Origin: an uncultured Candidatus Saccharibacteria bacterium
GTDB taxonomy: Bacteria > Patescibacteriota > Minisyncoccia > Phycocordibacterales > 2-02-FULL-43-11
Assembly: GCA_964348785.1 (NCBI GenBank)
Contig: CAYGDO010000002.1
Coordinates: 66,238-130,237, forward strand
Reading direction: 5' to 3'
Length of the DNA: 64,000 nt
Shown: positions 3,508 to 58,873 of the stretch, one piece after another
Position numbering within the stretch: position 1 is the first letter of the stretch
How the letters are laid out: every line of letters begins with the position of its first letter
Notes under the pieces: generated by a model
Seen by the model: only the letters and a program-made list of their open reading frames with translations
Database searches by the model: none
What the model was told of the DNA's origin: nothing
Program-made: the position numbers and the translations under genes

Positions 3508-4791
3508 TTATAAATAAATAAGGGGATTCAAATAAGCACGTAGGTCCGCAACAGGCATTATATAACTACCACTACAAACTTTACTCTTTCTACTCATTAT
3601 TTGAACACCTTGAGTGGCATAAACAGTAAAATGTAAATGTGGGCCAGTCGAATAACCAGTATTACCTGAATAGCCAATAGTTTGACCTGTAGAAACTTCT
3701 TGTCCTGCCCCACTAACCTCAAAAGCTGAAAGATGGGCATAAAGAGTTGAAAGACCATTTGGATGTTCAATTAGAATCCATTTACCATAAGAAGTTCCTG
3801 GGCAAGCGGTATCCGTATTACCAAAACCCTTAACAATTCCACCAAGAGAAGCTTTTATTGCCGTTCCAACATTTATAGCCAAATCGATGCCATTATGACC
3901 AGAACCGTTATAAAGTTGAGGATTAGAAAGTGCAAATTTTGTATTACCAAAATATTGACTAATTTTTACCTTATCAAGAGGCCACTGTAAAATACCTTTG
4001 CCTGTTTTTGGATAACTATCAGGATCAATAGCAAACTTAAGTTGAGATTCAAACTCTAAAAGTTCTTTTTCAAAAGCGTCCTTGTTAGCTAATTGATTTT
4101 TTAATAATTTTTGATACTCGGATTCTTTATTTTTAGTTTGAGTTAACAATTTTTCTTGTTCAGCTTTCAAAGATTGCGAGACTTTTTTGTTTCCCAACAA
4201 TTCTAAATTCAAATTCTCTAATTGTTTCTTTATCAAAAGAGCCTGCGCTTTATCTTTCTCTAAACCTTTTTTTGTAACTTTCAAATCTGTAATCAATTTT
4301 GATAGATTAGAAGAGAAAATCTGGTTCTGTCTTAAAGATGACCAATACTCTGACATATTGTCATAAGCCAAAACTGTAAAAATCACCGATTTTGATTCTA
4401 AAACTTCAGTATCCTTAATTGACGATGCAATACCGTCAACGCTTTTTTGTATAGATAAATTTTTGTTATCTATATCAAAACCCAATGATTGAATTTCCAA
4501 CTTTTTACCACCAATTTTCTGTTCAGTGACTTTTATTTGAGCGGTAATCTTTTTCATTTCACCGTCATATATCTTAATTTTATTACTCAAAGTATTCTGA
4601 GCATTTCTAGAAGATTGTATCTGCTTCTCAGTGTTAGCAATTTCTTCCTCCAAAGCTTTAATAGCGTCTTTTCGCAATTGAATTTTACTTTGCAACTCTT
4701 CTGGAGTTTCAGAAAATACAAAAGAAAAACTGACCACCCAAACGAGCGTCAAAAATAAAATAGCCCTTATCTTAAACTGGCACTTATCCAT
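3508..4791 (-). CDS. M23 family metallopeptidase (murein endopeptidase) with N-terminal coiled-coil, EnvC-like
   Basis: Signal/TM, long coiled-coil, 'HNGIDLAI' and 'GNTGYSTGPHLHFTVY' LytM/M23 motifs. Confidence 0.85.
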   Translation of the reverse strand: MDKCQFKIRAILFLTLVWVVSFSFVFSETPEELQSKIQLRKDAIKALEEEIANTEKQIQSSRNAQNTLSNKIKIYDGEMKKITAQIKVTEQKIGGKKLEIQSLGFDIDNKNLSIQKSVDGIASSIKDTEVLESKSVIFTVLAYDNMSEYWSSLRQNQIFSSNLSKLITDLKVTKKGLEKDKAQALLIKKQLENLNLELLGNKKVSQSLKAEQEKLLTQTKNKESEYQKLLKNQLANKDAFEKELLEFESQLKFAIDPDSYPKTGKGILQWPLDKVKISQYFGNTKFALSNPQLYNGSGHNGIDLAINVGTAIKASLGGIVKGFGNTDTACPGTSYGKWILIEHPNGLSTLYAHLSAFEVSGAGQEVSTGQTIGYSGNTGYSTGPHLHFTVYATQGVQIMSRKSKVCSGSYIMPVADLRAYLNPLIYL

Positions 4792-15829: not shown

Positions 15830-15997
15830 CCAACCATAAGGATAATAGACGGTTAACTCCACAATGTCCCCTTTTGTGTCTGTGGATAGAGTAATGGAAC
15901 CGAAGTGGTCGGTGAGGTGATATGAAAGAGCGGGAGATGGGGTTACTTCTACAGCTTTGGTTTGTTTTACTGCTCCGCCTTTTTTGATGAGTTAGTC
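15830..15997 (-). pseudogene. orphan remnant of an RHS core start (no start codon, begins right after a stop, ends 'YYPYGW*')
   Basis: About 165-nt duplicate, roughly 75% identical, of main-gene segment 17205-17362. Translates to 'IKKGGAVKQTKAVEVTPSPALSYHLTDHFGSITLSTDTKGDIVELTVYYPYGW'. Main-gene counterpart reads '...LIKKGGTIRQLKPIDLTSSSSLSYHLIDHLGSITLSTDTAGKVVELIDYYPYGS'. Confidence 0.6.
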
Positions 15998-16356
15998 CAA
16001 TAGTAAAGTTTAGTAGAATCAGTTGGATAATCACCTCCGCAATCTTTGTCTTTTTGGGGATCCACAATTTTATCAATTTCAACATCAAACATCCGCCAAC
16101 TGGGATTCTTAGCGTACGTATTGTCCCCCCTCTTTTCGTGACTAATAAAATGGCGCTCACTGGCACCGAAATTCTTAAAATTGTCCTGTGCCTGAAGTAA
16201 AGAAACTTCATTGGCTCCCAAAGTTTCAACAAACTTTAGTTGAGAAATGTCATCCTCCCAATTACAAATCGGGCAAATTTCGTAGTGTCCGGGAGGTTCT
16301 GAAAATACATCATACCCACAACACGGGCAAGTGAACATTGTTTCGTCTTTTTTCAT
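15967..16356 (-). CDS. CPCC-family cysteine-rich protein, putative cognate immunity protein of the upstream RHS toxin
   Basis: Literal 'CPCCGYDVFSEPPGHYEICPICNWEDD'. Starts 5 nt after the stop of the 2417-aa toxin gene. Confidence 0.6.
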   Translation of the reverse strand: MKKDETMFTCPCCGYDVFSEPPGHYEICPICNWEDDISQLKFVETLGANEVSLLQAQDNFKNFGASERHFISHEKRGDNTYAKNPSWRMFDVEIDKIVDPQKDKDCGGDYPTDSTKLYYWTNSSKKAEQ

Positions 16357-16361
16357 ACTAA

Positions 16362-19300
16362 TTACTTTAAACTTTTAAGTAAGCTCTTCAAACTGTTTGA
16401 GAGAGACTGCAAGTTGTTAATTAATTGTCCAGCTTGACGATCAAAATACGCCTGACCTGCTGACGGCTTAAAAAATGTATTGATGACAGTACCACCAGTT
16501 TTAGGATTAATTTGAAAAACCGCAAAAGAGTTCGACAAAGAATCGTAGGCCCTTGCCACACCTCCAGCATCTATTTTTAGTGAAGTTTTACCATTCATTG
16601 CGTCAGTTACAAAATCTCTAGCACCTTTTATATACTCCTTAGTATTTTTAAATCCAAATTTCTCTGCATGTTTCCCAGCATGATAAATTGCATTATCGGC
16701 CAACGTTAACTTGGTTCCTTTACTCCAGATACCCTCAAAGACTGGCACCACTTTCCCCGCGGGTATCTCCCCCGCAGTCAATGCCCCAACGGCCGCCATC
16801 CCATAATTTCCTTTATCTACATCATCTATTACTTGGCTGACAGCAACTTGCCCAAGTGGAGTGAGTAACGATTGGGCAAAGGAAGTTATCTGTGGAGCGT
16901 ACATTGTCAAAACCCCTGCAACAGCCACTAGAGCTGGAAGAAACCTCCCATCCGGGTCTTTGTAAGTTACGGGATTATTACCTCCATACGAATACGAATT
17001 CTGAACTTGAGGATTTAAAAGAGCTTCCTTCCCTTCTTTACTCATCCCCACTTCCCAAAACACCGGATCCTGATTAAGAAACTGCCCTCTTGCTCCATCG
17101 TAGTAACGAGCATTAAGGTAAGAAAGTCCTGTACTTGCATCAAACTCCTGCCCTATATACTTCCTCTGTTCTTTTGGAGAACCTCCTTCATCTGCCCTAA
17201 TACTACCATAAGGATAATAGTCGATTAATTCCACAACTTTACCAGCGGTATCTGTGGAGAGAGTAATAGAACCAAGGTGGTCGATTAAGTGGTAAGAGAG
17301 AGATGAAGATGACGTTAGGTCTATAGGCTTTAGCTGGCGGATTGTTCCTCCTTTTTTGATTAAGACGCCACCTCCTTTCTTAACTAGAAGCTTGGAGGCT
17401 TTGAGGTTGATGTAGAGAGTGGAGTCTGCTGTGACAGTAAGAACTTTACCTACAGGGACAATGACAGAAGCGGGAGCGGTAACGGAGCCCACAATAGTAC
17501 ACGAAGAAATCAGCGTGAAATCTCCTGTTTCTGGAATAACACAAGTACCAGCGTTTGCATTTGTTAACTTTGGAGCTACGGGTGTCTTTTTGTCAAAAGT
17601 GGAGAGTAACGTGTCGCCCACAAAAACGTGAGAAGTCTCGGACACAACAACGTCGTCAGAATTGTATCCTGCGTTGAAGTATTTAGATGGATACAAAGTA
17701 ACACCGCCTTTCCCATCAGAAACCTTCACCCTAGCGCCTCCGTGATCATAAGCGTAAGTGGAAGTGGCGAGACCGTTTGCAACAGAAATTAGGCGGTTGT
17801 TGTAGTCATATATATAGGAAATATTGCCAAACGAAATCAAATTACCACTTTTGTCGTAAGAGAGAGTGTTGGTTGCCACAGAACTACCGGTAACCGTCGA
17901 CGCGTGGGGGTTGGCGTAATCGGTACCATCATAAAAATAGTTAGTAGTTGTAAACTTCCCCACAGCACTACTAAATGGGGTATTTTCATTAAAAATAGGA
18001 GCTCCGAAAGCCGTGAGATGGTATGCATTCGCCGTAAAATCGTAATAATTATTGCCAAGTTTGTAGTAAGCAACAAGATTGGCCTCATTCCCACTCAACT
18101 CAGTAAGATAATTGCTATCCAAATCAACAAGCGAACGACTTGTATTCCAAAATCGGACATCGTCAACAAGACCGTCCCAATTATGCGGATTTGGGAAAGT
18201 GGCCTTACCGATAGCCAATTCATTAAACCCGCCATAACCTCTACCGACAGCAAGAGTGGGGCCTTTCACCAAAGTATGCCCGCTGCTAGTTGATGTTGCC
18301 AAATACAAGTTCATTTCTGTGCCATTGTAAGTTCCGACAATATGGTACCAAGAGCCGACAGAGAGGGTGGTGTCATAAATTATTCTTGCCCCCCCAACTC
18401 CTTCTATATGCCTGTCAAAATTAATGTGGTGAGATCCGTCAGTATAGCTTGTAGATAAAGAGTAACCGACATTGGTCACAGCATCCTGTTGAGACGCAAT
18501 AATATTGAACCCAGCGGAAGGCAAACTTTCAGGTTTTATCCAAGCCTCTATAGTAATAGGTCCCCCAGAAATACCAGCATTAGTTGGGACGGAAGCATAC
18601 TGACTAGAGTCTCCTTCAACATCTAAAGAATATGGGTTGAGTGAAACTTGCCCTTCAATTTTACTAATAATATTTCCAAGCGGATTGTAAGCAAAAGATT
18701 GTTGATTTGGCGTCGCCAATGCATCTACCAATCGATACAAATCATCATACTTATACGTCGCGATTTTCTTTGTGTTGGTTTCCGAATTATCCACAATCTG
18801 CAAAATATTTCCGACAGAATCGTAAGTGTAGGACAAATTTTGAAGTTGTAAGTTGTTAGCTGAAAGAGTCTTTTTATTTGTTAAGCGATAAAGTCGCGCT
18901 GGATCATAGGTATTTGTAGCAACAACACCATTACCATAAGTAATCGTTTTTAGCTGACCAAGTGGCGAATAATCAAAAGCGCCGATTTGCGTTACAGGTG
19001 TAGTTGTGGAAACTCCAGTTGCCGATATTGAATCAACTAAACCTGCGGAATTGTATATGTATGAAGTTTTTTTGGAATCAACGCCGGTCATTTCTGTCAC
19101 ACCTCCTCCTAAATTGTAGAGATAACTTGAAATGAAAGTTTTACCTCCAATAATTTTAGTTTCAGTTTTTGCTTGCCCCGCGGGGGTGTATGCGTAGCTA
19201 GTACTATTCATTTCTAAATTTGCCCCGACAGAATCATCGGCATAAGAAACCGCACAAAGCTTACCGATGCCGAAATCACAGGCGTCATAAGTGTAAGTTG

Positions 19301-22300
19301 TCCTAACACCTACAGGGATAGTTGAAATTGGAGAAGAAGCTGCCTCAATTTTCCCCAATCTATTCAACGAATCGTAAGTATAAACTGTTCGCGTACCATT
19401 CGGATCGGTTTTCCCCGTAAGATTGCCGACATCGTCATACTGATATGAGTAAACCCCGAAAGCGGTGTCACTTGGCGTGTGCAAATCTTCCGCCAAAAGT
19501 CGTCTACCGGAAAAGTCATAAGTGAAATTACGAATATTTTGAAGCGCATCTGTGATTTTTACAAGATTTCCTAAAGAATCATATTCATAAAATGTGGAGT
19601 AGGTGTCGGGATAATTAAATTCATCCACACGAGTAAGTCGGCCAAAAACATCTTTATAATATATTTTACTTTTACCGAGCGTGTCGGTAATTTTTGTCTG
19701 ACCGGGACTGAAATATGTATTGGTCGTCCCTAAAGCGTCAGTTTTCTGCACATTCCTACCGAGTGCATCATAAGTAAAGCTAGTATACAAAGAACTGTCA
19801 CTCGTGGCAGAAGTTTTACCTGAACCGTCACTAAAATATGGCAAAGATTGTTTTCCAACGCGACCCTCAGAATCATAAATTATGTCTGACACAATAAAAG
19901 TATTGGGATTTTCAGATTGTTTTCGAGTTTGTATCTCCCTACCAATGCCATCAAAATAAGTGTAGGTTTCGTTTGAAAGAGTACTGTTTATGAAATCAAC
20001 TTTTTTAACAGAAATATTATTTGGAGTATCTGTGTATTGATAAATTGTTTTTGTCACTAAAGAAGCCGAAATACCCGAAACCACGACGGAATTTCCGTCA
20101 GGCTGTTTTTCTTGAAGAGTACGGCCAAAAGCGTCGTATGCTTTGGAATAAATTTGATTATTTGAATCGGTGATTTGAATTGGCTTTCCTAGAGCGTAAT
20201 CGTAAAGATAAGTGGTTTTTTGATTCAAATGATTAGTGACTGAAATCGGAAAAAGATTGTATGTGTCGTAAGAATAACCGGTAGAATTTCCATTTGCATC
20301 GGTTGATGTTGCCACAAGCGCAAACGGATTGTATGTTGCAGAAGTAATGGAATACCTACCATCAGAAATCAAAGATTCTTGTTTTGTGCCATTGCCTTCT
20401 AAAAGTTGACCAAAAGGTAAATCATCAAAATATGTTTTTGATTCCGAAATCACATTTCCAGATTGCGAATTAGTAGTTTTATGAGATACCTCGTAATGAA
20501 TTTGTATTGAAGTTGAAGTGGAAACGCCCGCGTTTGAAGCGTACTCAACATTAGTTATAGTTTTGTCATTTCCAATATCAACAAAAGAATAAGAAGCGAG
20601 CGTGTTTGTTGACGCGGAAGTTACCTCGCCATAATCAACAGAAGAAATTAAATTGCCATTTGAGGTATCGTATGAATATTCCGTAGCGTGATCTTTGTGA
20701 GAAGTCGTGCCGTCAAAACTTTCTTCAATCTTTTTAGAAAGATACACAAATACCGGTGCGGAAGAAGTAAAGCCTGCTGAATTTACTCCCGCTAAAGGAG
20801 ACTCACTATAAATATTTTGATTTCTGGCGAACAACTTACCCTCCCTATCAAAAACTTCTGTTTTATATACAGAGCCGATTTTGCCGTAACTATCCCCTGT
20901 TTCTCCAGTTGAAGAGTTATCACCATTCCCCTGATGAAAATATGAAATTGTCACAGATTTTCCGGAATCTTTTGTAACCTTGCCAAATCCGGCAAATTTT
21001 CTATCGTGCGAACCGTTAAAAAATCCTTGCCCATCTGCGTAAGTGTATGTATCTACTTGTGGCTCTCCACCCACGCCATCGGTTGTAGTTATTTTGGACA
21101 CAATCCAAAGAACTGTTGGCAGTTTTAGATTAAACCGCTCACCCGAAGCGGAAGTTTTGTAATCAATAGATGTTTTTCCGCCTTGCGGGTAAGTTATAGT
21201 TTTTAAAATATCCGCTCTTGTTGTGGGGCCACTTGGAATATCAACGAGGGTGTCACCGTTGGTGTCATAGTAGTCGGTCAGTTGATAGGAAAAATTCCAC
21301 TTCCAATTGTAAGGATTTATTTTAATAAAATATGGAGACTTGAGGGTTGAACTTTTTACAAATCCATTTCCTGTATTTATGTAAACTTCATTATAATCCC
21401 CTGTTGTGTACCCGTTATCAAAATTTGGGTTGTTTGGCAAAACCCAACCACGCAAAACATCAACTAGCCCGTCAGCGTTAATATCCAGATACCGAACCCC
21501 CATATCATTACCGTCACCATCAGTCATCATTAATGTGTGGTCAGGTGAATCACCAAAAATAGGAACCATTGGTCCAGTTAACCCCCCATCTCCAGTACCT
21601 ATACGAAAAGAACTGTATCTATCGCTAGTCTTTGTATCATCTAAACCATCACCATTAACATCCATCGCACCCACTCGCCTCCTCTCCTCCCACCCAGATA
21701 TTTCGCGTCCATAAATTTCTGGTAGGCCATCTCCATTTGTGTCTGCAACGAAAGAGCCTTTGGCTACTAGCAAAGGAGTGGTAGTTGATATGTATGTATA
21801 ACTATTATCCAAACTATTAATACCGCTATTCAGATAAAGTGTCGGTGGATTGGGAGGAGGAGGACAGGTGGCGTTGGTACAACTACCTGCATTAAAGAGT
21901 GTAACCGGAACACCGAAAAAATCAGTTAAACCGTCACCATTCAAATCCGCAATACGCGCACCACTATCCTCTGGGCCTGAACCGTTTGAACCCCTAGTAT
22001 GATAAGCAAATCTTAAATTAGGTAGGGAATTTGAACCCGCTACGCCTAACTTGTTCCACTCCACCTGAATATTAAAACTATTTGATTCATAAGGGTTAAT
22101 TCCAAGCACAAATGAATCTGTGTAGCCATCACCATTCAAATCAGCATAAACATCTCCCCCTCTTTCTGGACCGTAAAAGAAAGAGCCGAGAGCCCAACTA
22201 AACGTACCGGATGAAATAGCAGGCTCAAGCCCCGTCGGTAAAACAGGATTTTCAAACCCCTTCGTGTACTCAAAAGTTGTTTGCGGTAAAGTTGTTGCAA

Positions 22301-23615
22301 CGTTTTGGGAGTCGTAGCCAGTTTCAGTAATTCCTGAAAGGATTGAACGTACGCCGTTTACACCAACTCCGTAGGCAAATTCGTATTTCTTTTTCAAAAT
22401 ATCACTGACACGAATTTCAATTATTTTGAGTCGTTTGGCATTGGTACTTAAAAATGCAAACTTGTATGAAGAAATAGCACTGTCTGAACGAGTATCTTCA
22501 TATACAAAAGTGACTTTGTAAATTCCAGATACAACTTCTCCGGAATTTGCCTGATGATTGGTATAAGTAATTTCAGTTGGATATACCTGACCGCCAGTTA
22601 CCGTATAGTTATATGAAATGTAATTACCGTTTGAATCACGGACTTCATCTAGATACCATTTAGCAACACGAGAAGCATTTGCAGGGTCCGCGTTTCGTGA
22701 AGTTGCCACCGAACCGAAAGTGTAGACTCTGCCGTTTTTATCATAAACCTTCCAACTCGTAGTGGTGGCGTTGTAAACATATTTCAAAAATTCGCCGGAA
22801 TCAACGCGAGGTTGATATAAACCAGCAATTGTAGTTGAGGCTAATTCACCGGATAAGCTGGAACTGAAATAATCTTGACCATACATTACTATATTTCCCT
22901 GCTTATTGATTCTCTCAATTGATGGAATGTTAAAATCCCAACCATACCCCATCGTATTTATGTTGGAATTCTCGGACGAGTTATATGAAATATTTAAAGA
23001 TGTCTCAACACCTGCCCTACCGGAAGGTGTAACAATCGGATAGGAATATGAAAGCGCTCCCGAGGAAGCATTGGCTTCGGGAAGAGTGGTTTTTCTATAA
23101 GCAAAATTGGAATTATCGTAAGTGGTTGGCTTGTTTTCCAACTGAGCGCTAGTGGCTTCAATTTCTGGAGGTAACAAGTCTTGCGCGTCCGGAGAAACCT
23201 CTGGAATTTCAGTGTCCAACTTTGGAGCTTCCGGAGCAATCTCGGGCACCACTTCAGTTTTTGGATTTGCATCTACAGTTGTTTCGGGAGTTATTTGTGT
23301 CGGGTCAGGTAAAATAGTAGAGCCTATTTCAGAATTTTCTGATGCAGAACTGCTTGGTGTTGATGTATCAGGAGAAACGTTGGTCTCAGCTGGGGTAGAT
23401 GGAGATGCAGTTTGGTCAGAGGAGGTTTCAACGGAAGCTACGGGGACAGGAGGTTGCGAAGCAACCTCCTGCGCAAACGCCACAGCAATCGGTTGCATTA
23501 AAAAAGCAACCACCAAAAAACTGGTTACGATTTTTTGCGTATTTGATTTTCTTATTTTCTTTGTAGAAACAATTGAAAAAAAGAAATTCATAGAATTTTT
23601 ACTGACACTTCCCAA
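16362..23615 (-). CDS. Tc-toxin-like TcB/TcC fusion / RHS polymorphic toxin: signal, S/T/P linker, SpvB domain, FG-GAP beta-propeller, YD repeats with LamG insertion, RHS core, C-terminal toxin domain
   Basis: SpvB-like N-terminal region. 'ADLNGDGLTD/DVNGDGLDD/LDINADGLVD' FG-GAP repeats. Many YD repeats ('YTYDALGR','YEYDSLGNL','YQYDDVGNL'). RHS core 'YHLIDHLGS...YYPYG...RYYDGARGQFLNQDPV...NPVTYKDPDGRF'. About 195-aa tip follows. Confidence 0.85.
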   Translation of the reverse strand: MGSVSKNSMNFFFSIVSTKKIRKSNTQKIVTSFLVVAFLMQPIAVAFAQEVASQPPVPVASVETSSDQTASPSTPAETNVSPDTSTPSSSASENSEIGSTILPDPTQITPETTVDANPKTEVVPEIAPEAPKLDTEIPEVSPDAQDLLPPEIEATSAQLENKPTTYDNSNFAYRKTTLPEANASSGALSYSYPIVTPSGRAGVETSLNISYNSSENSNINTMGYGWDFNIPSIERINKQGNIVMYGQDYFSSSLSGELASTTIAGLYQPRVDSGEFLKYVYNATTTSWKVYDKNGRVYTFGSVATSRNADPANASRVAKWYLDEVRDSNGNYISYNYTVTGGQVYPTEITYTNHQANSGEVVSGIYKVTFVYEDTRSDSAISSYKFAFLSTNAKRLKIIEIRVSDILKKKYEFAYGVGVNGVRSILSGITETGYDSQNVATTLPQTTFEYTKGFENPVLPTGLEPAISSGTFSWALGSFFYGPERGGDVYADLNGDGYTDSFVLGINPYESNSFNIQVEWNKLGVAGSNSLPNLRFAYHTRGSNGSGPEDSGARIADLNGDGLTDFFGVPVTLFNAGSCTNATCPPPPNPPTLYLNSGINSLDNSYTYISTTTPLLVAKGSFVADTNGDGLPEIYGREISGWEERRRVGAMDVNGDGLDDTKTSDRYSSFRIGTGDGGLTGPMVPIFGDSPDHTLMMTDGDGNDMGVRYLDINADGLVDVLRGWVLPNNPNFDNGYTTGDYNEVYINTGNGFVKSSTLKSPYFIKINPYNWKWNFSYQLTDYYDTNGDTLVDIPSGPTTRADILKTITYPQGGKTSIDYKTSASGERFNLKLPTVLWIVSKITTTDGVGGEPQVDTYTYADGQGFFNGSHDRKFAGFGKVTKDSGKSVTISYFHQGNGDNSSTGETGDSYGKIGSVYKTEVFDREGKLFARNQNIYSESPLAGVNSAGFTSSAPVFVYLSKKIEESFDGTTSHKDHATEYSYDTSNGNLISSVDYGEVTSASTNTLASYSFVDIGNDKTITNVEYASNAGVSTSTSIQIHYEVSHKTTNSQSGNVISESKTYFDDLPFGQLLEGNGTKQESLISDGRYSITSATYNPFALVATSTDANGNSTGYSYDTYNLFPISVTNHLNQKTTYLYDYALGKPIQITDSNNQIYSKAYDAFGRTLQEKQPDGNSVVVSGISASLVTKTIYQYTDTPNNISVKKVDFINSTLSNETYTYFDGIGREIQTRKQSENPNTFIVSDIIYDSEGRVGKQSLPYFSDGSGKTSATSDSSLYTSFTYDALGRNVQKTDALGTTNTYFSPGQTKITDTLGKSKIYYKDVFGRLTRVDEFNYPDTYSTFYEYDSLGNLVKITDALQNIRNFTYDFSGRRLLAEDLHTPSDTAFGVYSYQYDDVGNLTGKTDPNGTRTVYTYDSLNRLGKIEAASSPISTIPVGVRTTYTYDACDFGIGKLCAVSYADDSVGANLEMNSTSYAYTPAGQAKTETKIIGGKTFISSYLYNLGGGVTEMTGVDSKKTSYIYNSAGLVDSISATGVSTTTPVTQIGAFDYSPLGQLKTITYGNGVVATNTYDPARLYRLTNKKTLSANNLQLQNLSYTYDSVGNILQIVDNSETNTKKIATYKYDDLYRLVDALATPNQQSFAYNPLGNIISKIEGQVSLNPYSLDVEGDSSQYASVPTNAGISGGPITIEAWIKPESLPSAGFNIIASQQDAVTNVGYSLSTSYTDGSHHINFDRHIEGVGGARIIYDTTLSVGSWYHIVGTYNGTEMNLYLATSTSSGHTLVKGPTLAVGRGYGGFNELAIGKATFPNPHNWDGLVDDVRFWNTSRSLVDLDSNYLTELSGNEANLVAYYKLGNNYYDFTANAYHLTAFGAPIFNENTPFSSAVGKFTTTNYFYDGTDYANPHASTVTGSSVATNTLSYDKSGNLISFGNISYIYDYNNRLISVANGLATSTYAYDHGGARVKVSDGKGGVTLYPSKYFNAGYNSDDVVVSETSHVFVGDTLLSTFDKKTPVAPKLTNANAGTCVIPETGDFTLISSCTIVGSVTAPASVIVPVGKVLTVTADSTLYINLKASKLLVKKGGGVLIKKGGTIRQLKPIDLTSSSSLSYHLIDHLGSITLSTDTAGKVVELIDYYPYGSIRADEGGSPKEQRKYIGQEFDASTGLSYLNARYYDGARGQFLNQDPVFWEVGMSKEGKEALLNPQVQNSYSYGGNNPVTYKDPDGRFLPALVAVAGVLTMYAPQITSFAQSLLTPLGQVAVSQVIDDVDKGNYGMAAVGALTAGEIPAGKVVPVFEGIWSKGTKLTLADNAIYHAGKHAEKFGFKNTKEYIKGARDFVTDAMNGKTSLKIDAGGVARAYDSLSNSFAVFQINPKTGGTVINTFFKPSAGQAYFDRQAGQLINNLQSLSNSLKSLLKSLK

Positions 23616-24840
23616 TACAAATATCTCCGTCCGACACTAAATTCCCTGATAGTTTTATATCCCCAGCAACATCGAGTTTTGCCCCTGGAGTAGTAGTTCC
23701 GATTCCCACCCTACCCGTAGACTTTACTATAAGATATGAAGAAGAATTAATATACACGTCCCCTTTTGGTGGCGCGCCGACAGTCACATTATCAGCCGAA
23801 CTAAAACTAATAACATTTCTTTCGGTCCCAGAAGAATCTTTAAATTTTATAGATTGGCTATTATCAAGCAGTATGCTACCGCCACTTATGGTGAGTTTTT
23901 GAGTGGGCGATAAGGTACCTATACCTAATTTACCCCCAGTAAATACCATGTCTGGAGTAAGAGGATTAGAAACAACATTAGCAGTTAAACCAGTAGGGGT
24001 ATACCATCTAAAATCTGTAGCGGTATTTAATTGAACAGTAGCTGCCGTGCCAGAAGGAGTCACTCTATAACCAGCGCTATAAGATGGTTTACCTCCGGTA
24101 GACTGTAAAAACTCATTATTACCAGTCGTGTCGGTCATATATGTACCAAGATTTACATTATCTCCCCCTGTTGCACCTGAAGTTAATCTTAAATATCCTC
24201 CATTCAAAGTTAACCTCTCTGACGGTGAAATCGTCCCGACACCAACATTACCGGTTGAACCGACTATTACCATTCTTGACAGATGACCAGCCTTAAAATT
24301 AATGAGTGAGGTATAATCACCGAAATTAATTGGCAATGTGGTCTTACTGCCTGCCCCACCTGCAAAATAGAAACCAGTTGGATCCATACCAGCAATAATC
24401 TCTCTGTTTCTGTTTGAGAAAATATATCCACTAGTGGTATTACCGATACCAATACTACCGTAGGTTTCAAAAGGATAAAAAGGAGTTGTCGTACCCACCC
24501 CCATTCTTCCCGTCGTATCTATAGTAACTTTTGGATTGGAATTATTGGTGAAAAAATATAAATTGTGATTACTTTGAGTGCCTAGCCAACCACCAGGAAT
24601 TGAAGTATTCCAAACAAAAGTACCCATTTTCACCAAACCGTCTGTATGAACGAGACCATACTTACCGGTAGCTGTTTTTATAGTGAGAGGGCTTTCTGGA
24701 GAAGTCGTCCCGATACCAACATTACCAATGTTAGTATTGTAAATATTATTACCATTACTTTGCCAAAAAGCATCAGCAAAATTAATGTCCAAAAGAGTTA
24801 GAGTTGATAAAAAGACAACCAAAAATATTTTTTTATACAT
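23599..24840 (-). CDS. secreted repeat protein with tail-fiber-like 'G(N/S)VGIGTT(S/T)P' repeats, first gene of the RHS operon
   Basis: Signal peptide. Seven or more 'VGIGTTSP/ VGVGTISP / LGIGTLSP / VGIGTTTPGAKLDV' repeats. Ends 'DICIGKCQ'. Overlaps the RHS gene start by 17 nt. Confidence 0.6.
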   Translation of the reverse strand: MYKKIFLVVFLSTLTLLDINFADAFWQSNGNNIYNTNIGNVGIGTTSPESPLTIKTATGKYGLVHTDGLVKMGTFVWNTSIPGGWLGTQSNHNLYFFTNNSNPKVTIDTTGRMGVGTTTPFYPFETYGSIGIGNTTSGYIFSNRNREIIAGMDPTGFYFAGGAGSKTTLPINFGDYTSLINFKAGHLSRMVIVGSTGNVGVGTISPSERLTLNGGYLRLTSGATGGDNVNLGTYMTDTTGNNEFLQSTGGKPSYSAGYRVTPSGTAATVQLNTATDFRWYTPTGLTANVVSNPLTPDMVFTGGKLGIGTLSPTQKLTISGGSILLDNSQSIKFKDSSGTERNVISFSSADNVTVGAPPKGDVYINSSSYLIVKSTGRVGIGTTTPGAKLDVAGDIKLSGNLVSDGDICIGKCQ

Positions 24841-26943: not shown

Positions 26944-28587
26944 CTACATCTTGTATAAATCTAAATACTTATTACCCAAAACAGACACTTGCGAATCTTT
27001 ATTCAGAAAATCTGCTAAGCCAACCAAAGATGGAAACATAATATTTGAACCGTGGTGTGGCTCTATGTGTATGTCCCCCAAAAATATTTTACCAGAATTA
27101 ATCATTTCGTTAAAAATTTTTAATTTTCCGTCTATGGCATAAATCGCTGACTGCGGAGAAGAACAAGAAACATGAGGATTTGAAATACCATGATAAACCC
27201 AACCTTCTGGAATCTTTTCTGGATGAAAATAACCATGCCAATGCGCCATTGCTAAACCCTTATTTTTTACAAGATTTAAAAACTCATCTTTCGGAGAAAA
27301 CTTCTGTAAAATACTGGCAATTATTACATTACCTACGGCATGAGCCAAAATAACCTTAGTGTCAAAAGATGGCTTATAGTCACTTTTCAAAACTAAACCC
27401 TTAGGAGAACAAAGATGCATTCTCCCATTTTTTAATCCTAATTTAATTATATCCTTATTGGGATCAAAATTAGTTTTATTACAACCGGAACGCAAACTAA
27501 GAACCCAGACTTCTGGCAATTTCATTACATATTTTAAGCCTTTTAAAGATAAAGCGATATATAAATTTCCATCAAAATTGGCAAAGTCTTTGTCGCCGAA
27601 TACAACACCTGAATGATTCTTTATAAAATCATCATAAATGATTAGATCCTCTAATTTAGAAGGTAGCTGTCTAGCAAAAAAACCAAAACTCATACCACTT
27701 CTCTCATCCAAATGAATACTGCCAATCCATTTATAAAAATTATTTCTAAAAGGCAAATCTGCTATTTTTTTGCCGGGTGGGTATAGCTTTGTCTTTTCAA
27801 ATTCTTTAGAACCCTTAATCAAATCGTCGACTGACTCTTTATGAAATGTATCAAAAGGATCAAAAGCGTTTGGTTGAAATACAAACTCAGAAAATTTATT
27901 TGGTCTTATGGGCGCCACAACTTTTGGCACTAAGGCGTGAAGAACAGAATTATTAAAATCTTTTTTTCTGTCATATATCGGATGCGAAGCATTAAAATTA
28001 TACAAAAGCCATTTATCTTTTTTTACTGCAATAACGATATTTGTCATATGATGTGCAAAAAGACTCATAGACGTATCAAAATGTTCCACAAAATCTGACT
28101 CCTCTGAAATACCCTTTGGCCAATTAACAATAGTAATAACAAAACTACCAGAAAAACTTATAGTATGATCCATTGGCAAATTCCAAGTTTCATTTTCTCC
28201 AAGAGCAATTACAGATATGCCCTTCTTTATCTTGTTTCTTCTAAACAAATTCCTGATAGCGCTAAGAGGCACATAATGTCTACTATTATCTAATTTAAAT
28301 ACTCCATTAAAAAAACAAATAAAATTATTTACCAAAATTCTGAAAAGTCTTCTAAAAATTCTAGGGATAGAAACCTTCTCTAAGGCCTCTTCATAAGGAA
28401 CAACATTCACCTTTAAATCACTAAAAGCTTTCTTTAATTGCTCAACAAAAGAAAAAACCTCTTCATCAATATGCTTCCCAACGTGAGGGTAAAAAGTCAC
28501 ATTCATTTTATCAGCCATCTCTTCAGCAGTAATTGAGACTGTTTCTTTTATGCTTAAAATTTTTTCTAGGGCTTCTTGACTTAACAT
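26944..28587 (-). CDS. hypothetical protein (547 aa)
   Basis: Long ORF with no motif I can assign. Confidence 0.45.
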   Translation of the reverse strand: MLSQEALEKILSIKETVSITAEEMADKMNVTFYPHVGKHIDEEVFSFVEQLKKAFSDLKVNVVPYEEALEKVSIPRIFRRLFRILVNNFICFFNGVFKLDNSRHYVPLSAIRNLFRRNKIKKGISVIALGENETWNLPMDHTISFSGSFVITIVNWPKGISEESDFVEHFDTSMSLFAHHMTNIVIAVKKDKWLLYNFNASHPIYDRKKDFNNSVLHALVPKVVAPIRPNKFSEFVFQPNAFDPFDTFHKESVDDLIKGSKEFEKTKLYPPGKKIADLPFRNNFYKWIGSIHLDERSGMSFGFFARQLPSKLEDLIIYDDFIKNHSGVVFGDKDFANFDGNLYIALSLKGLKYVMKLPEVWVLSLRSGCNKTNFDPNKDIIKLGLKNGRMHLCSPKGLVLKSDYKPSFDTKVILAHAVGNVIIASILQKFSPKDEFLNLVKNKGLAMAHWHGYFHPEKIPEGWVYHGISNPHVSCSSPQSAIYAIDGKLKIFNEMINSGKIFLGDIHIEPHHGSNIMFPSLVGLADFLNKDSQVSVLGNKYLDLYKM

Positions 28588-55465: not shown

Positions 55466-58400
55466 TTAATTTGTCACAACATCAGTAGAAGAGGCTGTCG
55501 GTTCTATAATCGCCGGCATAGTCGTAGTAGATATATCGATAACAGGTAAAGTTGTTGACGCTTGAGAGTTCGGATTAAAAACAACTACAGTCCTTGTGGA
55601 AGTGGCAAAATTCATCATTGAATCATGGGCAACCCAAACTACTTCATAGGTACCCTCTCTAGATGTGTCCACTGTGCTACTTGCCAAATCAGGCATCAAG
55701 CTTTGCCCTTTAGAATCTAAAGCTGTGGCCCCCAAATCAATATACGTAGAATTTAAAGCGATTTCTGATGGGTTATTACCAATAAGAGTAATGACGGGTG
55801 TAGAAGTTGATACTACATTTGTCTGATTATCAATTTTTATATTAGAAAATACAGTTTTAAATTGTTCTTTAGTAACACATATATCCTCCAAACAAAGTTC
55901 TTTAGTCTCAACTCGATCAAACACTCCTAAAACTGAAGTAATTTTTGAGCCCATCCACTCAGCAACATTTGAGACAAAACTAGAAACCGTAGAAGTTGAA
56001 ATTTTAGATTCTAAATTCAAAATTCTTGATTCAATATCATTTAGACGAATAGAAGAAAAAACCGGAACGGAAATTAAAGTTGAGGAGGCCGTTGAAGATG
56101 CAATGGAAAAAGTGCTTGTTGCCGTCTGCCTCATATTTAAAACTGAAGCCAAATCTTGAACCGCAGAAACTGTTAAAGCTGTTAAGTTGCCATAAGAAAT
56201 ACCTTTACTACCCTCTTCACCAGAAACCACTTCAGGAATTTCTTTCTCGATATCTTGAGCAATAAAACCTATTTGAGGTAAGTGGTTCCCTTTCATCTCA
56301 TAATAAACAGGTTTTAAATTTAAAATGGATTGAAAAGAATATTTATTATTTAAAGGAATAATATTTTCCTTGTACGAAATATCAGATGCGCTAGTCCAAG
56401 CTCCAGCAGCATTTAAAGTCGCAGTATTTAATGACCCCCCTGTATCTCCTCCCAAAAAGGACATTACCCCAGACGTATTCATATATATGCTACGAAAATC
56501 AGTATTACCCGTTTCAGCTATATAAAGACCGCCCGTTTGATCATTAGCCGATTGAGTAATTGATAATCTGGCAGTAGGCGATGTTGTGCCCAATCCAATA
56601 ACACCAGTATTTTTAACTATAAAATCAGTTCTAGTTGAGGAGCCAATAACAAAAGATGGTCCGCCTATGCTATTTGGATTTATAGAAAATTGACCCCATG
56701 GAGTAGTAGTACCAACACCTAAATTACCATCAGAAGATTGTGCATAAAAAGTCGGATATAAATTATTTATAAAAGTTGAAATATATGATGATGTGCCGTG
56801 GATCACATCCTTAAGGCCATCACCATTTACATCCCCGACTGCAATTGAATTACCAGCCCCAACCGTATTATAAAGTTTTCGTGTTCTGAAAGTTCCATTA
56901 CCATTATTAATCAAAACTGATATTTGAGCTGTATTATTATTAGGAATAACTATATCTGGCCTAGTATCATCATTTAAATCACCGATAGCTATAACGAAAG
57001 GATTAACAATAGAAATACTATAAGCAACAGGTGATGCCAAAGTTCCACTAGTACTTCCCATAAAAATTGATACAGTACTTGGACCATTTGCGTTTGTAGA
57101 AACAACGTCATCATAGCCATCACCATCGAAGTCATCTACTCCTACCCAATAAGGCTGACCACTATTTGGCGAATAATCCGTCCTTGTGGCAAGAGTCCCA
57201 TCACCATTATTTAAAAAAATAGAAATTTTTGAACTACTCCAACAAGCAGTTGCGACATCCAACCAACCATCACCGTTAAAATCACCAAAAGTTGCCCCTC
57301 TTGAAGCAGAAAGATTCGAATAAGATACATAAGATGCAAAAGTGCCATCGCCATTATTCAAAAGAACGGAAATACCGCTAGCTCCTTGTGCCACCGCAAC
57401 AATATCATTCCAACCATCCCGATTAATATCACCAATATCGACACCATTAGGCCCAGCGCCAGTTGAATAATCAACTTTATTAGCAAAAGTTCCATCACCA
57501 TTATTTATAAAAACAGAAATAGTATTCGCGGTATAATTCCCAACAATTACATCTTGCGAACCGTCATTGTTTACATCACCTATAATAGAATCAATAGGAT
57601 TTGTACCCGCAGTATAGGTTACAGGAGCAGATAACACACCGGAGCTATTTAAAAACACTGTCATATTACTATTTGTATAATCCACACCAACAGCGTCAAC
57701 CCGTCCGTCACCATTTAAATCAGCAGTTTTGTCTCCCAAGGCGGCGCCAGTTGCAGATAAATCTACTCTTGTAGCAAAACTACTATCCATTTTAGAAACA
57801 GTTAAACCGGATGGTCCATTAACCTTCAGAGAACCAGCAAAAGTAGACGTGGCATTATAAGTATTAGTAGTTAAATTACCAGAAACAAATGCGTCACCAA
57901 CCACAGTAAACTTAACAAAAGGTGAGGATGTACCAACGCCAACATTACCTCCATTAGTGACAACAAAATTTGTAGCGGTAGAAGAACCTATCACAAAAGA
58001 TGGTGTTGTTATGCCATTTGGATTTATAGAAAATTGACCCCAAGGTGTACTAGTCCCGACTCCGATTCTGTTATTAATAGAATCGACATATAAAGTCCCA
58101 GAATCAAAATTGACATCGCTTGAAATTGTAGAAGTACCCGAACTTAAAGAAACAGTGAGTACTCCAGAAATAGTTGTGGAACCGCCAGATAAAGCTCCAG
58201 AAAAATTTCCGGTAACACTATCTAATCCTCCAGTTAAAGTGATAGAAGAACCGGAAAAAGAAGAATCTGAAATTGTGGCTCCACTTATAGTAACACTCGA
58301 TAATTTATCTATTTTATTAGATAAAGATATAGCTTGATAAACAGGAGCTAAAGATAAAGAATTATATGCTTGCTGTTTTTGTTGTTGATTAGCAACTAAA

Positions 58401-58873
58401 TATTTTATTTCGCTAATTTGTCTCTCCAATTTAAGCTTCAAATCATTAACGGAATTATCTATATCATTTTGAGATACACCAGAAATTTCTATTGTTTTAA
58501 TAATTTTTATTTGAGGTTCTTTTTTTTCTTCGGGCACAATATCTTGTGATTGTCTTGGCGTTGTTGAACTAACAACCGTGTTTAAATTTGCACCAAAACT
58601 TAAAGAATTTACAGAAGCCGGCAAATGATTGACCTTATCAAGCAAAACTGAAAAAGATGCTGAGGTATGATTAAAAATTCTAACCACTGTTCTGTTAAAA
58701 TTTAAAGCAAAATAAAAAGGAGCTCTTAAAACTTCAGAAAATGAAAGGGCCGAAGCAAAAGAGGGTGAAAAAATAAAAGAAGTAAACACCAAAATAACCA
58801 AAAAAATGTTTAGATTATTTTTTATGCTTTTATTCCACATACTTAAGACAAAAAACTTTTTTATCTCGTTCAT
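55466..58873 (-). CDS. large secreted surface protein: tail-fiber-like GxGTxTP repeats, FG-GAP beta-propeller, peptidase-S74 intramolecular-chaperone domain, C-terminal Ig-like (DUF5011-like) domain
   Basis: Signal peptide. 'NRIGVGTSTPWGQFSINPN' repeated. Seven 'D(L/V/F)N(G/N/R/D)DG..D' FG-GAP motifs. 'SDISYKENIIPLNN...LKPVYYEMKGNHLPQIGFIAQDIEKEIPEVV' S74 chaperone motif. 'VITLIGNNPSEIALNSTYIDLGATALD' Ig-like. Confidence 0.7.
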   Translation of the reverse strand: MNEIKKFFVLSMWNKSIKNNLNIFLVILVFTSFIFSPSFASALSFSEVLRAPFYFALNFNRTVVRIFNHTSASFSVLLDKVNHLPASVNSLSFGANLNTVVSSTTPRQSQDIVPEEKKEPQIKIIKTIEISGVSQNDIDNSVNDLKLKLERQISEIKYLVANQQQKQQAYNSLSLAPVYQAISLSNKIDKLSSVTISGATISDSSFSGSSITLTGGLDSVTGNFSGALSGGSTTISGVLTVSLSSGTSTISSDVNFDSGTLYVDSINNRIGVGTSTPWGQFSINPNGITTPSFVIGSSTATNFVVTNGGNVGVGTSSPFVKFTVVGDAFVSGNLTTNTYNATSTFAGSLKVNGPSGLTVSKMDSSFATRVDLSATGAALGDKTADLNGDGRVDAVGVDYTNSNMTVFLNSSGVLSAPVTYTAGTNPIDSIIGDVNNDGSQDVIVGNYTANTISVFINNGDGTFANKVDYSTGAGPNGVDIGDINRDGWNDIVAVAQGASGISVLLNNGDGTFASYVSYSNLSASRGATFGDFNGDGWLDVATACWSSSKISIFLNNGDGTLATRTDYSPNSGQPYWVGVDDFDGDGYDDVVSTNANGPSTVSIFMGSTSGTLASPVAYSISIVNPFVIAIGDLNDDTRPDIVIPNNNTAQISVLINNGNGTFRTRKLYNTVGAGNSIAVGDVNGDGLKDVIHGTSSYISTFINNLYPTFYAQSSDGNLGVGTTTPWGQFSINPNSIGGPSFVIGSSTRTDFIVKNTGVIGLGTTSPTARLSITQSANDQTGGLYIAETGNTDFRSIYMNTSGVMSFLGGDTGGSLNTATLNAAGAWTSASDISYKENIIPLNNKYSFQSILNLKPVYYEMKGNHLPQIGFIAQDIEKEIPEVVSGEEGSKGISYGNLTALTVSAVQDLASVLNMRQTATSTFSIASSTASSTLISVPVFSSIRLNDIESRILNLESKISTSTVSSFVSNVAEWMGSKITSVLGVFDRVETKELCLEDICVTKEQFKTVFSNIKIDNQTNVVSTSTPVITLIGNNPSEIALNSTYIDLGATALDSKGQSLMPDLASSTVDTSREGTYEVVWVAHDSMMNFATSTRTVVVFNPNSQASTTLPVIDISTTTMPAIIEPTASSTDVVTN

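Follow-up and report, generated by a model that had tools for sequence, protein, structure and literature searches.

The stretch analysed here is a 64,000-nucleotide (nt) window of contig CAYGDO010000002.1 (GCA_964348785.1), from an uncultured Candidatus Saccharibacteria bacterium, and its subject is the C-terminal tip of an RHS/YD polymorphic toxin together with the small gene that follows it. The toxin gene (16362..23615, minus strand) is a single open reading frame (ORF) that translates to 2417 amino acids (aa) from a TTG codon. Its RHS-associated core (16947..17219, minus) ends in ...NPVTYKDPDG and is recognised by the NCBIfam model TIGR03696 Rhs_assc_core (E=4.2e-18, residues 61-151 of the translation of window:16365-17399:-). 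The boundary string NPVTYKDPDGRF is found in the RHS translation, as is its longer form '...NNPVTYKDPDGRF', and because the TIGR03696 match stops on the G of DPDG, the boundary that a first-pass annotation of this DNA had described as conserved is genuine. Beyond it lies the tip, 195 aa in the in-frame translation and beginning GRFLPAL... (window:16365-16949, minus). The annotation's length of about 195 aa stands, while its end coordinate of 16950 lay one base out of frame, the true end being 16949. An immunity gene of 129 aa (15967..16356, minus) begins 5 nt past the RHS stop codon. The features by which RHS/YD polymorphic toxins are recognised are thus present in the window, namely the repeats, a core with a DPxG-type end, a variable tip and a downstream immunity gene.

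The tip consists of three parts. A word-indexed homology search with the tip gave five matches (P0001-P0005). The RHS C-terminal fragment P0001 matches the whole tip at 43% identity, whereas P0002-P0005 match only its first ~65 residues ('MYAPQITSFAQSLLTPLGQ...GNYG.AAFG..T.GE'), beyond which their C-termini are of four kinds, none related to another. This difference in extent separates a reusable pre-toxin module of ~65 aa from the toxin domain proper, which makes up only about 110 of the 195 aa that had been taken as the toxin tip; a short C-terminal helix closes the protein.

Homology of the tip and its neighbour to PDB 8EY4

The toxin domain proper (tip aa 69-178, ~110 aa; 16416..16745, minus) is homologous to the C-terminal toxin region of CdiA (CdiA-CT) of Escherichia coli O32:H37. 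A phmmer search of the PDB with the window domain retrieved 8ey4_A, a chain labelled 'PT-VENN domain-containing protein', at E=1.3e-5, and a profile of 47 family members (A1) matched the same chain over residues 4-88 of 88 at E=3.1e-29. The entry was released on 2023-11-08 under the title 'contact-dependent growth inhibition toxin-immunity protein complex from E. coli O32:H37'. The protein encoded downstream in the window has at its N-terminus a four-cysteine zinc ribbon of the CPCC type (aa 9-76; 16129-16332) that belongs to Pfam PF14206 Cys_rich_CPCC (E=1.5e-26), followed by a C-terminal extension of ~50 aa. In the PDB it matches 8ey4_I, a 'Cys_rich_CPCC domain-containing protein' (E=4.4e-11), and 8ey3_A (E=1.7e-10). 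Both genes of the window cassette are therefore homologous to one crystallised toxin-immunity complex, and the tip is not the orphan for which it had been taken.

Curated family models do not reach this relationship, in line with the first-pass annotation, which could assign the tip to no family. Pfam-A and NCBIfam scans of the tip were empty, the best matches (E>=0.005) being clearly spurious. The same two libraries gave no significant toxin-family match for the 8EY4 sequence, for P0001-P0005 or for the 47 family members, and neither holds a model of the 8EY4-type family. The view that the tip has no describable family came close to being overturned by 8EY4, a confident match to a described toxin.

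The family is large. An exhaustive HMMER search of 1.84 billion representatives yielded 350 proteins at E<=1e-3. A search of genome contigs with the single toxin domain found no relative. The domain ends within 15 residues of the C-terminus in 135 of 151 proteins whose lengths range from 83 to 3155 aa, a position that constitutes the signature of a polymorphic toxin tip. Its carriers include CdiA/hemagglutinin-repeat proteins (Rhizobium, Salmonella, E. coli), RHS proteins, a DNRLRE-domain protein (Bacillus mycoides) and a PT-HINT protein, and some members are labelled 'pyocin large subunit-like protein' by the Joint Genome Institute. The family consensus reads W(G)..tL..HF.rHG.DFG...a.eYa..A..F....K.D.dG..R.YDp.TNTFg.y..dGt.rTfFKP..G..Y[FW].rQpG. 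The strings AIYHAGKHAEKFGF, 'EYIKGARDF' and AVFQINPKTGGTVINTFFKP, quoted earlier as a conserved-looking region, are all present in the tip, and the 350 representative homologues bear that impression out. Sequence, fold, invariant residues and immunity partner are all positive, and the tip is a member of the 8EY4-type CdiA-CT toxin family.

The immunity partner is a consistent companion. Nine loci were examined in which a gene on the same strand immediately follows a family toxin (the window, L002 with P0001, pO113, a Rhizobium plasmid, L001, L005, L006, a B. mycoides plasmid and L007). In each of them the product of this gene is a small four-cysteine zinc-ribbon protein, and C-x2-C ... I-C-x2-C is invariant in all nine proteins. 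Four are PF14206 members, four form a 'CxVCG...YEICPxCGF[QE]FG' subtype, and the one from L007 is a more distant zinc ribbon. Within the subtype, the proteins from L001, L005 and L006 give sub-threshold PF14206 matches (E 1.6e-4 to 2.8e-3), and the B. mycoides protein is placed there by motif only. Toxin and immunity protein have diverged in parallel between the window and L002, with identities of 43% for the toxin and 48% for the immunity protein, the latter figure including the extension. They also contrast in charge, the immunity protein being acidic (isoelectric point, pI, 4.79) and the toxin domain basic (pI 9.66, computed on tip aa 66-175). By analogy with 8EY4, the CPCC zinc-ribbon protein is likely the immunity protein that neutralises the tip, which agrees with the role first proposed for the downstream gene.

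The two systems share the H...KH...F and TxFKP motifs of the toxin and the same CPCC zinc-ribbon immunity family, encoded immediately downstream; 8EY3 is the E. coli immunity protein alone. They differ in their carriers. The toxin of 8EY4 comes from a proteobacterium, on a CdiA of the two-partner-secretion type whose boundary is PT-VENN, whereas the window tip belongs to a putatively Sec-exported RHS cocoon in a Patescibacteria genome. In addition, the window tip is extended by a pre-toxin module at its N-terminus and an amphipathic helix at its C-terminus, both absent from 8EY4, and its immunity protein, at 129 aa, is about double the 61-70 aa of the 8EY4-type enterobacterial ones. The extension (residues 77-129; window 15970-16128, minus; '...DYPTDSTKLYYW...') is also conserved in the L002 partner, but the CPCC immunity proteins of proteobacteria, 61-70 aa long, lack it.

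Copies of the toxin domain were also encountered in other settings. Near-identical copies of 8EY4 occur on plasmids of Shiga toxin-producing E. coli such as pO113 (L009, NC_007365.1), where positions 4001-4440 encode an 8EY4-like segment with 97.6% identity for which PLSDB lists no gene; it is closely followed by genes for a 'CPCC family cysteine-rich protein', a transposase and the subtilase cytotoxin (subAB). Segments of this kind are found on 22 E. coli plasmids. On a Clostridium butyricum megaplasmid (L090, 2099-2731), a 210-aa protein annotated 'zinc-ribbon domain containing protein' has a CxxC...CxxC zinc ribbon at its N-terminus, a hydrophobic segment, and a copy of the toxin domain at its C-terminus; no separate immunity gene lies downstream, and the context is a different, non-polymorphic one. 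Positions 1097-3886 of L002, a contig of GCA_964372465.1, hold an array of RHS C-terminal fragments in which the P0001 toxin and its CPCC immunity gene precede a second RHS fragment, 408 aa long and bearing a PT-TG domain, and an ORF of 100 aa. The layout suggests an array of orphan toxin-immunity cassettes.

An RHS tip that curated models could not assign thereby becomes an annotated toxin-immunity pair. The domain is widespread, with 350 representative clusters spread over many phyla and carriers of the RHS, CdiA, PT-HINT and DNRLRE types. A crystal structure exists, yet the domain and its zinc-ribbon partner have no toxin model in Pfam or NCBIfam; with a family model and a single study of the biochemistry, hundreds of loci would be annotated. 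The window also places a complete RHS delivery system in a genome of the Patescibacteria (candidate phyla radiation), with a cassette common to enterobacterial contact-dependent growth inhibition (CDI) systems. The fold is classical and a homologous toxin-immunity complex had already been solved, so that no new kind of system is revealed.

Fold and predicted active site

The AlphaFold2 model of the toxin domain, built on a 22-sequence alignment, is very confident (pLDDT 92.3, pTM 0.85) and contains helices at domain residues 20-35 and 40-55, strands at 60-63, 68-73, 78-84 and 90-97, a short helix, a short strand and the tail helix. Compared by Foldseek, a check that the first-pass annotation had recommended, it matched 8ey4_A best (E=8.8e-6, TM 0.87), followed by colicin D chains (probability 0.91-0.98). 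Its elements run as a pre-alpha helix, an alpha helix and a four-stranded beta-meander. This is the order that a 2026 preprint classification gives for the 'Colicin-like' group of canonical BECR RNases, [pre-alpha + alpha-beta1-beta2-beta3-beta4] (10.64898/2026.08.28.747851). As modelled, the toxin domain is a BECR-fold RNase domain of the colicin-like group at the level of fold, in keeping with the earlier suggestion that the His/Lys motif is functional and belongs to a small nuclease or an RNase-type toxin. Among the 47 family members, PBECR3 and Colicin_D were the only Pfam models to match more than once at E<=10, both below threshold, a weak but consistent sign in the same direction.

The predicted catalytic motif, H-A-G-K-H-A-E-K (16659..16682, minus), lies on the pre-alpha helix (residues 20-35 of the model). 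The two histidines of 'YHAGKH' are H27 and H31 of the domain, with K30 preceding the second; the same residues are H90, K93 and H94 of the tip, and the histidines are H2312 and H2316 of the ORF. Across the family H27 is kept in 145 of 149 sequences and H31 in 146 of 149, while position 30 is R/K in 104 and position 34 is D/E in 137 of the same 149. The predicted second half of the active site is T-F-F-K-P (16464..16478, minus; domain T95-K98-P99) at the end of strand beta4, modelled at residues 90-97, where T95 is kept in 143, F97 in 130, K98 in 123 and P99 in 148 of 151 sequences. The window protein retains all the near-invariant residues (H27, H31, F35, Y43, F50, Y72, N77, F79, T95, F97, K98, P99 and Y105).

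This arrangement resembles that of the colicin D tRNase domain (PDB 1V74, 1TFK, 5ZNM). Judged by spacing and secondary structure, the two have in common Lys-His on the pre-alpha helix, a basic residue or His four positions earlier, an acid three positions after the pair (in the 8EY4-type family, not in the window) and S/T-x-x-K on the last strand. The Tox-ColD signature has been given as '[KH]K, Hxx[ED], [ST], [TS]xxK', and the residues listed as essential for colicin D are K607, K608, H611, D614 and S677 (Zhang et al., 2012; PMC3482391). The family pattern H-x-x-[RK]-H-x-x-[DE]...T-x-x-K fits this signature by spacing, the window having K at the [ED] position. Put another way, H(-4)...[RK](-1)-H(0)...[DE](+3)...T-x-x-K parallels K607/K608...K610-H611...D614 of colicin D. 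The preprint likewise places the active sites of colicin-like BECR proteins on the pre-alpha helix and conserved residues of beta4, and notes that the catalytic pre-alpha His often has a Lys before it, as in colicin D, PBECR3 and CdiA-CT EC869 (10.64898/2026.08.28.747851). From this close fit to the Tox-ColD signature and to the Lys-His of colicin-like proteins, we infer that tip H94 is equivalent to H611 of colicin D.

The likeness to colicin D stops short of sequence and of partners. No significant sequence match links colicin D to the 8EY4-type family, the Pfam model PF11429 reaching two of 47 members at E>=0.065. Colicin D is neutralised by ImmD and delivered by its own receptor and translocation domains, whereas the window tip has a CPCC zinc ribbon and an RHS carrier; the immunity types listed for Tox-ColD are ImmD or Imm64/Imm22 (Zhang et al., 2012; PMC3482391). 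Membership of Pfam Colicin_D (PF11429) was accordingly rejected, the window domain being unmatched at E<=1 and the immunity protein of another type. SRLase1 and the BECR-like superfamily were rejected as well, since the conserved R70, D72, H85 and H97 of SRLase1 lie on strands and the topology differs. Ntox35 is a predicted BECR toxin with an 'H, KH' signature, two N-terminal His and an S/T on its C-terminal strand, present on RHS proteins in many phyla and with no known immunity family (Zhang et al., 2012; PMC3482391). This published description fits the 8EY4-type family. Membership is not supported, because the Pfam Ntox35 model (PF15534) matched none of the 47 members at E<=10, nor the window domain. 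If related to Ntox35 at all, the 8EY4-type family would, judging from these profile searches, be a separate sequence family.

Proposed mode of action and rival explanations

The reading best accommodated by the homology and the fold, and one held with good confidence, is that the tip is a metal-independent RNase toxin of predicted colicin-D-like BECR type, neutralised by the CPCC zinc-ribbon protein. A Sec-exported RHS 'cocoon' shell would enclose the tip as a detachable payload, and the aspartyl-protease core of the RHS protein would cut it off at DPDG|RF. Autoproteolytic release at this boundary is expected from the conserved core and by analogy with what is known of RHS/TcC proteins. The tip would then enter a target cell, its hydrophobic module probably aiding the crossing of the membrane, and the BECR domain would cleave RNA by metal-independent acid-base catalysis through the pre-alpha pair K93-H94 (with H90) and the beta4 T-x-x-K element. 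The producer would be protected by direct binding of the acidic CPCC protein to the toxin, as presumed from the homologous CdiI in 8EY4.

The most probable substrate class, at about an even chance, is tRNA, by analogy with colicin D and related CDI toxins, and its cleavage would halt translation. Colicin D cuts the anticodon loops of tRNA-Arg. BECR toxins as a whole vary widely in substrate, which may be tRNA, ribosome-bound mRNA or rRNA, and some require EF-Tu, so that tRNA cleavage is only the most likely of several options.

This breadth of substrate is one of several points that count against the proposed mode of action. A literature search returned no enzymatic data for any 8EY4-type family member and no paper on 8EY4 or on CPCC immunity, and searches on O32:H37 CdiA, PF14206 and zinc-ribbon immunity gave nothing relevant. 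The residue equivalences with colicin D are based on motif spacing and secondary structure rather than on superposition, and the Pfam Colicin_D model gives no match at all to the window domain. The window also has K34 where D/E is usual (K in 3 of 149 sequences) and N94 where R/K is usual, although E33 adjoins K34; should this position be the counterpart of D614, which colicin D cannot do without, the window protein may be altered in catalysis.

Fold and immunity may be as proposed and the substrate something other than free tRNA, an explanation given perhaps one chance in a few. The toxin would then cleave mRNA or rRNA on the ribosome, as RelE, HigB and YoeB do, or depend on a host factor such as EF-Tu, as with CdiA-CT of NC101, EC869 and Kp342 and with the BECR-like SRLase1. 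The same variety among BECR toxins that makes tRNA only the likeliest substrate speaks for this alternative, while the parallel with the colicin D active site favours tRNA.

A somewhat less probable proposition is that the 8EY4/CPCC pair forms a distinct BECR clade, not biochemically characterised and with zinc-ribbon immunity, whose patescibacterial version could have a new RNA target or entry route, used by an episymbiont against its host or competitors. The traits of that version are its own pre-toxin module, the amphipathic tail, the altered E33-K34/N94 and the extended immunity protein. The zinc-ribbon type of immunity is not described in the polymorphic-toxin literature searched, and the main text of the BECR classification preprint makes no mention of 8EY4 or CPCC (10.64898/2026.08.28.747851).

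That the window copy is instead catalytically weakened or dead, a decaying cassette without the acidic position 34 and the basic position 94, is unlikely. The rarity of K34, the minority state of N94 and the essential role of D614 in colicin D (Zhang et al., 2012) point that way. Set against them are the retention of every near-invariant residue from H27 to Y105, the acid adjoining K34, the very confident structure model, and an intact ORF with an intact, tightly linked immunity gene; about 8-10% of family members vary at position 34 or 94 in any case.

It is very improbable that toxicity stems from ionophore-like membrane damage by the N-terminal module and/or the C-terminal helix, with the globular domain serving only in targeting or binding. 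The module is hydrophobic and nearly uncharged (Kyte-Doolittle maximum 1.65) and the hydrophobic moment of the tail is high, but the module precedes several unrelated C-terminal domains, as a carrier would rather than a toxin, and most family members, 8EY4 included, have neither module nor tail. Moreover, the partner with which the globular domain was crystallised is a homologue of the linked immunity protein. The hypothesis of a DNase, an HNH/AHH-type metal-dependent nuclease or a deaminase has nothing beyond the two histidines in its favour and can practically be dismissed, as no Pfam model of such a family matches, no HNH, EndoVII or deaminase structure appears in the top 60 fold-search matches, and the toxin domain is without Cys/His metal-binding motifs; the first-pass annotation had likewise set aside the AHH, GHH, SHH and HNH nucleases and the deaminases.

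Pre-toxin module, RHS carrier and surroundings

The pre-toxin module (tip aa 3-65; 16755..16943, minus; FLPALVAVAGVLTMYAPQITSFAQSLLTPLGQ...GNYGMAAVGALTAGEIPAG) was delimited by homology to proteins with different downstream C-termini. It is ~63 aa long, hydrophobic and Gly/Ala-rich, with two basic and four acidic residues in tip aa 1-65 and its Kyte-Doolittle maximum at tip aa 3-21. Identity to P0001-P0005 and P0171 is 51-68%, with 20 invariant columns among the six sequences. The module is found in about 12 proteins (P0001-P0008, P0010, P0012, P0052, P0171), always directly after the RHS DPxG site and ahead of at least four different C-terminal domains, although its distribution is poorly sampled, a homology search with the N-terminal module having added only one protein. 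RHS relatives thus keep the core and the module and carry other tips. No Pfam model matches the module, and the AlphaFold2 model of the full tip renders it as four short helices of low confidence (pLDDT 44-54). On account of its composition and its re-use with different toxins, the module is most likely a linker or a membrane-translocation element, and it may represent an undescribed pre-toxin or translocation domain.

At the other end of the tip, predicted structure and hydrophobic moment define an amphipathic helix of ~16 aa (16368..16412, minus; LQSLSNSLKSLLKSL), modelled at residues 117-131 of the domain and 180-194 of the full tip. The hydrophobic moment is 1.84 per residue over the last 20 aa (tip 176-195). 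This tail is limited to the closest relatives, such as P0009; most family members stop right after '...RQPG'.

In the RHS protein itself, Pfam identifies SpvB (183-355), FG-GAP_3 (557-635), TcdB_toxin_midN (796-883), DUF6443, RHS_repeat (PF05593, E=1e-29) and Laminin_G_3 (1670-1828), a set that corresponds to a TcB/TcC-like cocoon. An ATG at 23591 opens an N-terminus that by eye resembles a signal peptide (MNFFFSIVSTKKIRK...IAVAFA|QE). The ATG is, on sequence grounds, the more likely start of the gene than the TTG, and the N-terminus has the look of a signal peptide of the Sec type. Such a signal peptide, together with an RHS/YD shell, a conserved core ending in DPxG, a variable C-terminal nuclease tip and an adjacent immunity gene, is likewise known from Bacillus subtilis WapA, other monoderm RHS/YD toxins and the TcB-TcC cocoons of Tc toxins. 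The SpvB and TcdB_midN domains occur as in TcB, and no TcA-like partner was identified, no test having been aimed at Tc likeness. Unlike WapA and the Tc toxins, the window protein has a concanavalin-like lectin domain, Laminin_G_3, inserted in its RHS repeats (window 18132-18608, minus; E=1e-18), which may be a surface-exposed binding domain on the shell.

Directly upstream of the RHS gene lies a 413-aa ORF (window 23599-24840, minus) that overlaps the TTG start by 17 nt. It has no match in Pfam or NCBIfam and may assist the RHS system as an accessory or partner. In windows of 600 nt, GC content is 0.35-0.45 over the RHS gene, ~0.39 in the immunity gene and 0.30-0.36 in the neighbours (window ~16000-24700); one possible cause of the raised values is horizontal acquisition, another the amino-acid make-up of the RHS repeats.

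Elsewhere in the window, two large ORFs (55466-58873, 1135 aa; 26944-28587, 547 aa) gave no NCBIfam match, and Rfam and tRNA scans of the 64,000 nt found no tRNA, rRNA or other Rfam family. Occurrences of the window sequence are in metagenome assemblies only. Its DnaK shares 82% identity with the DnaK of a Candidatus Taylorbacteria metagenome-assembled genome, and the best 80 loci are all from Patescibacteria/Paceibacteria. The bacterium is taken to be a Taylorbacteria-like member of the Paceibacteria. Almost all long ORFs (>=120 aa) across positions 1-64000 lie on the minus strand.

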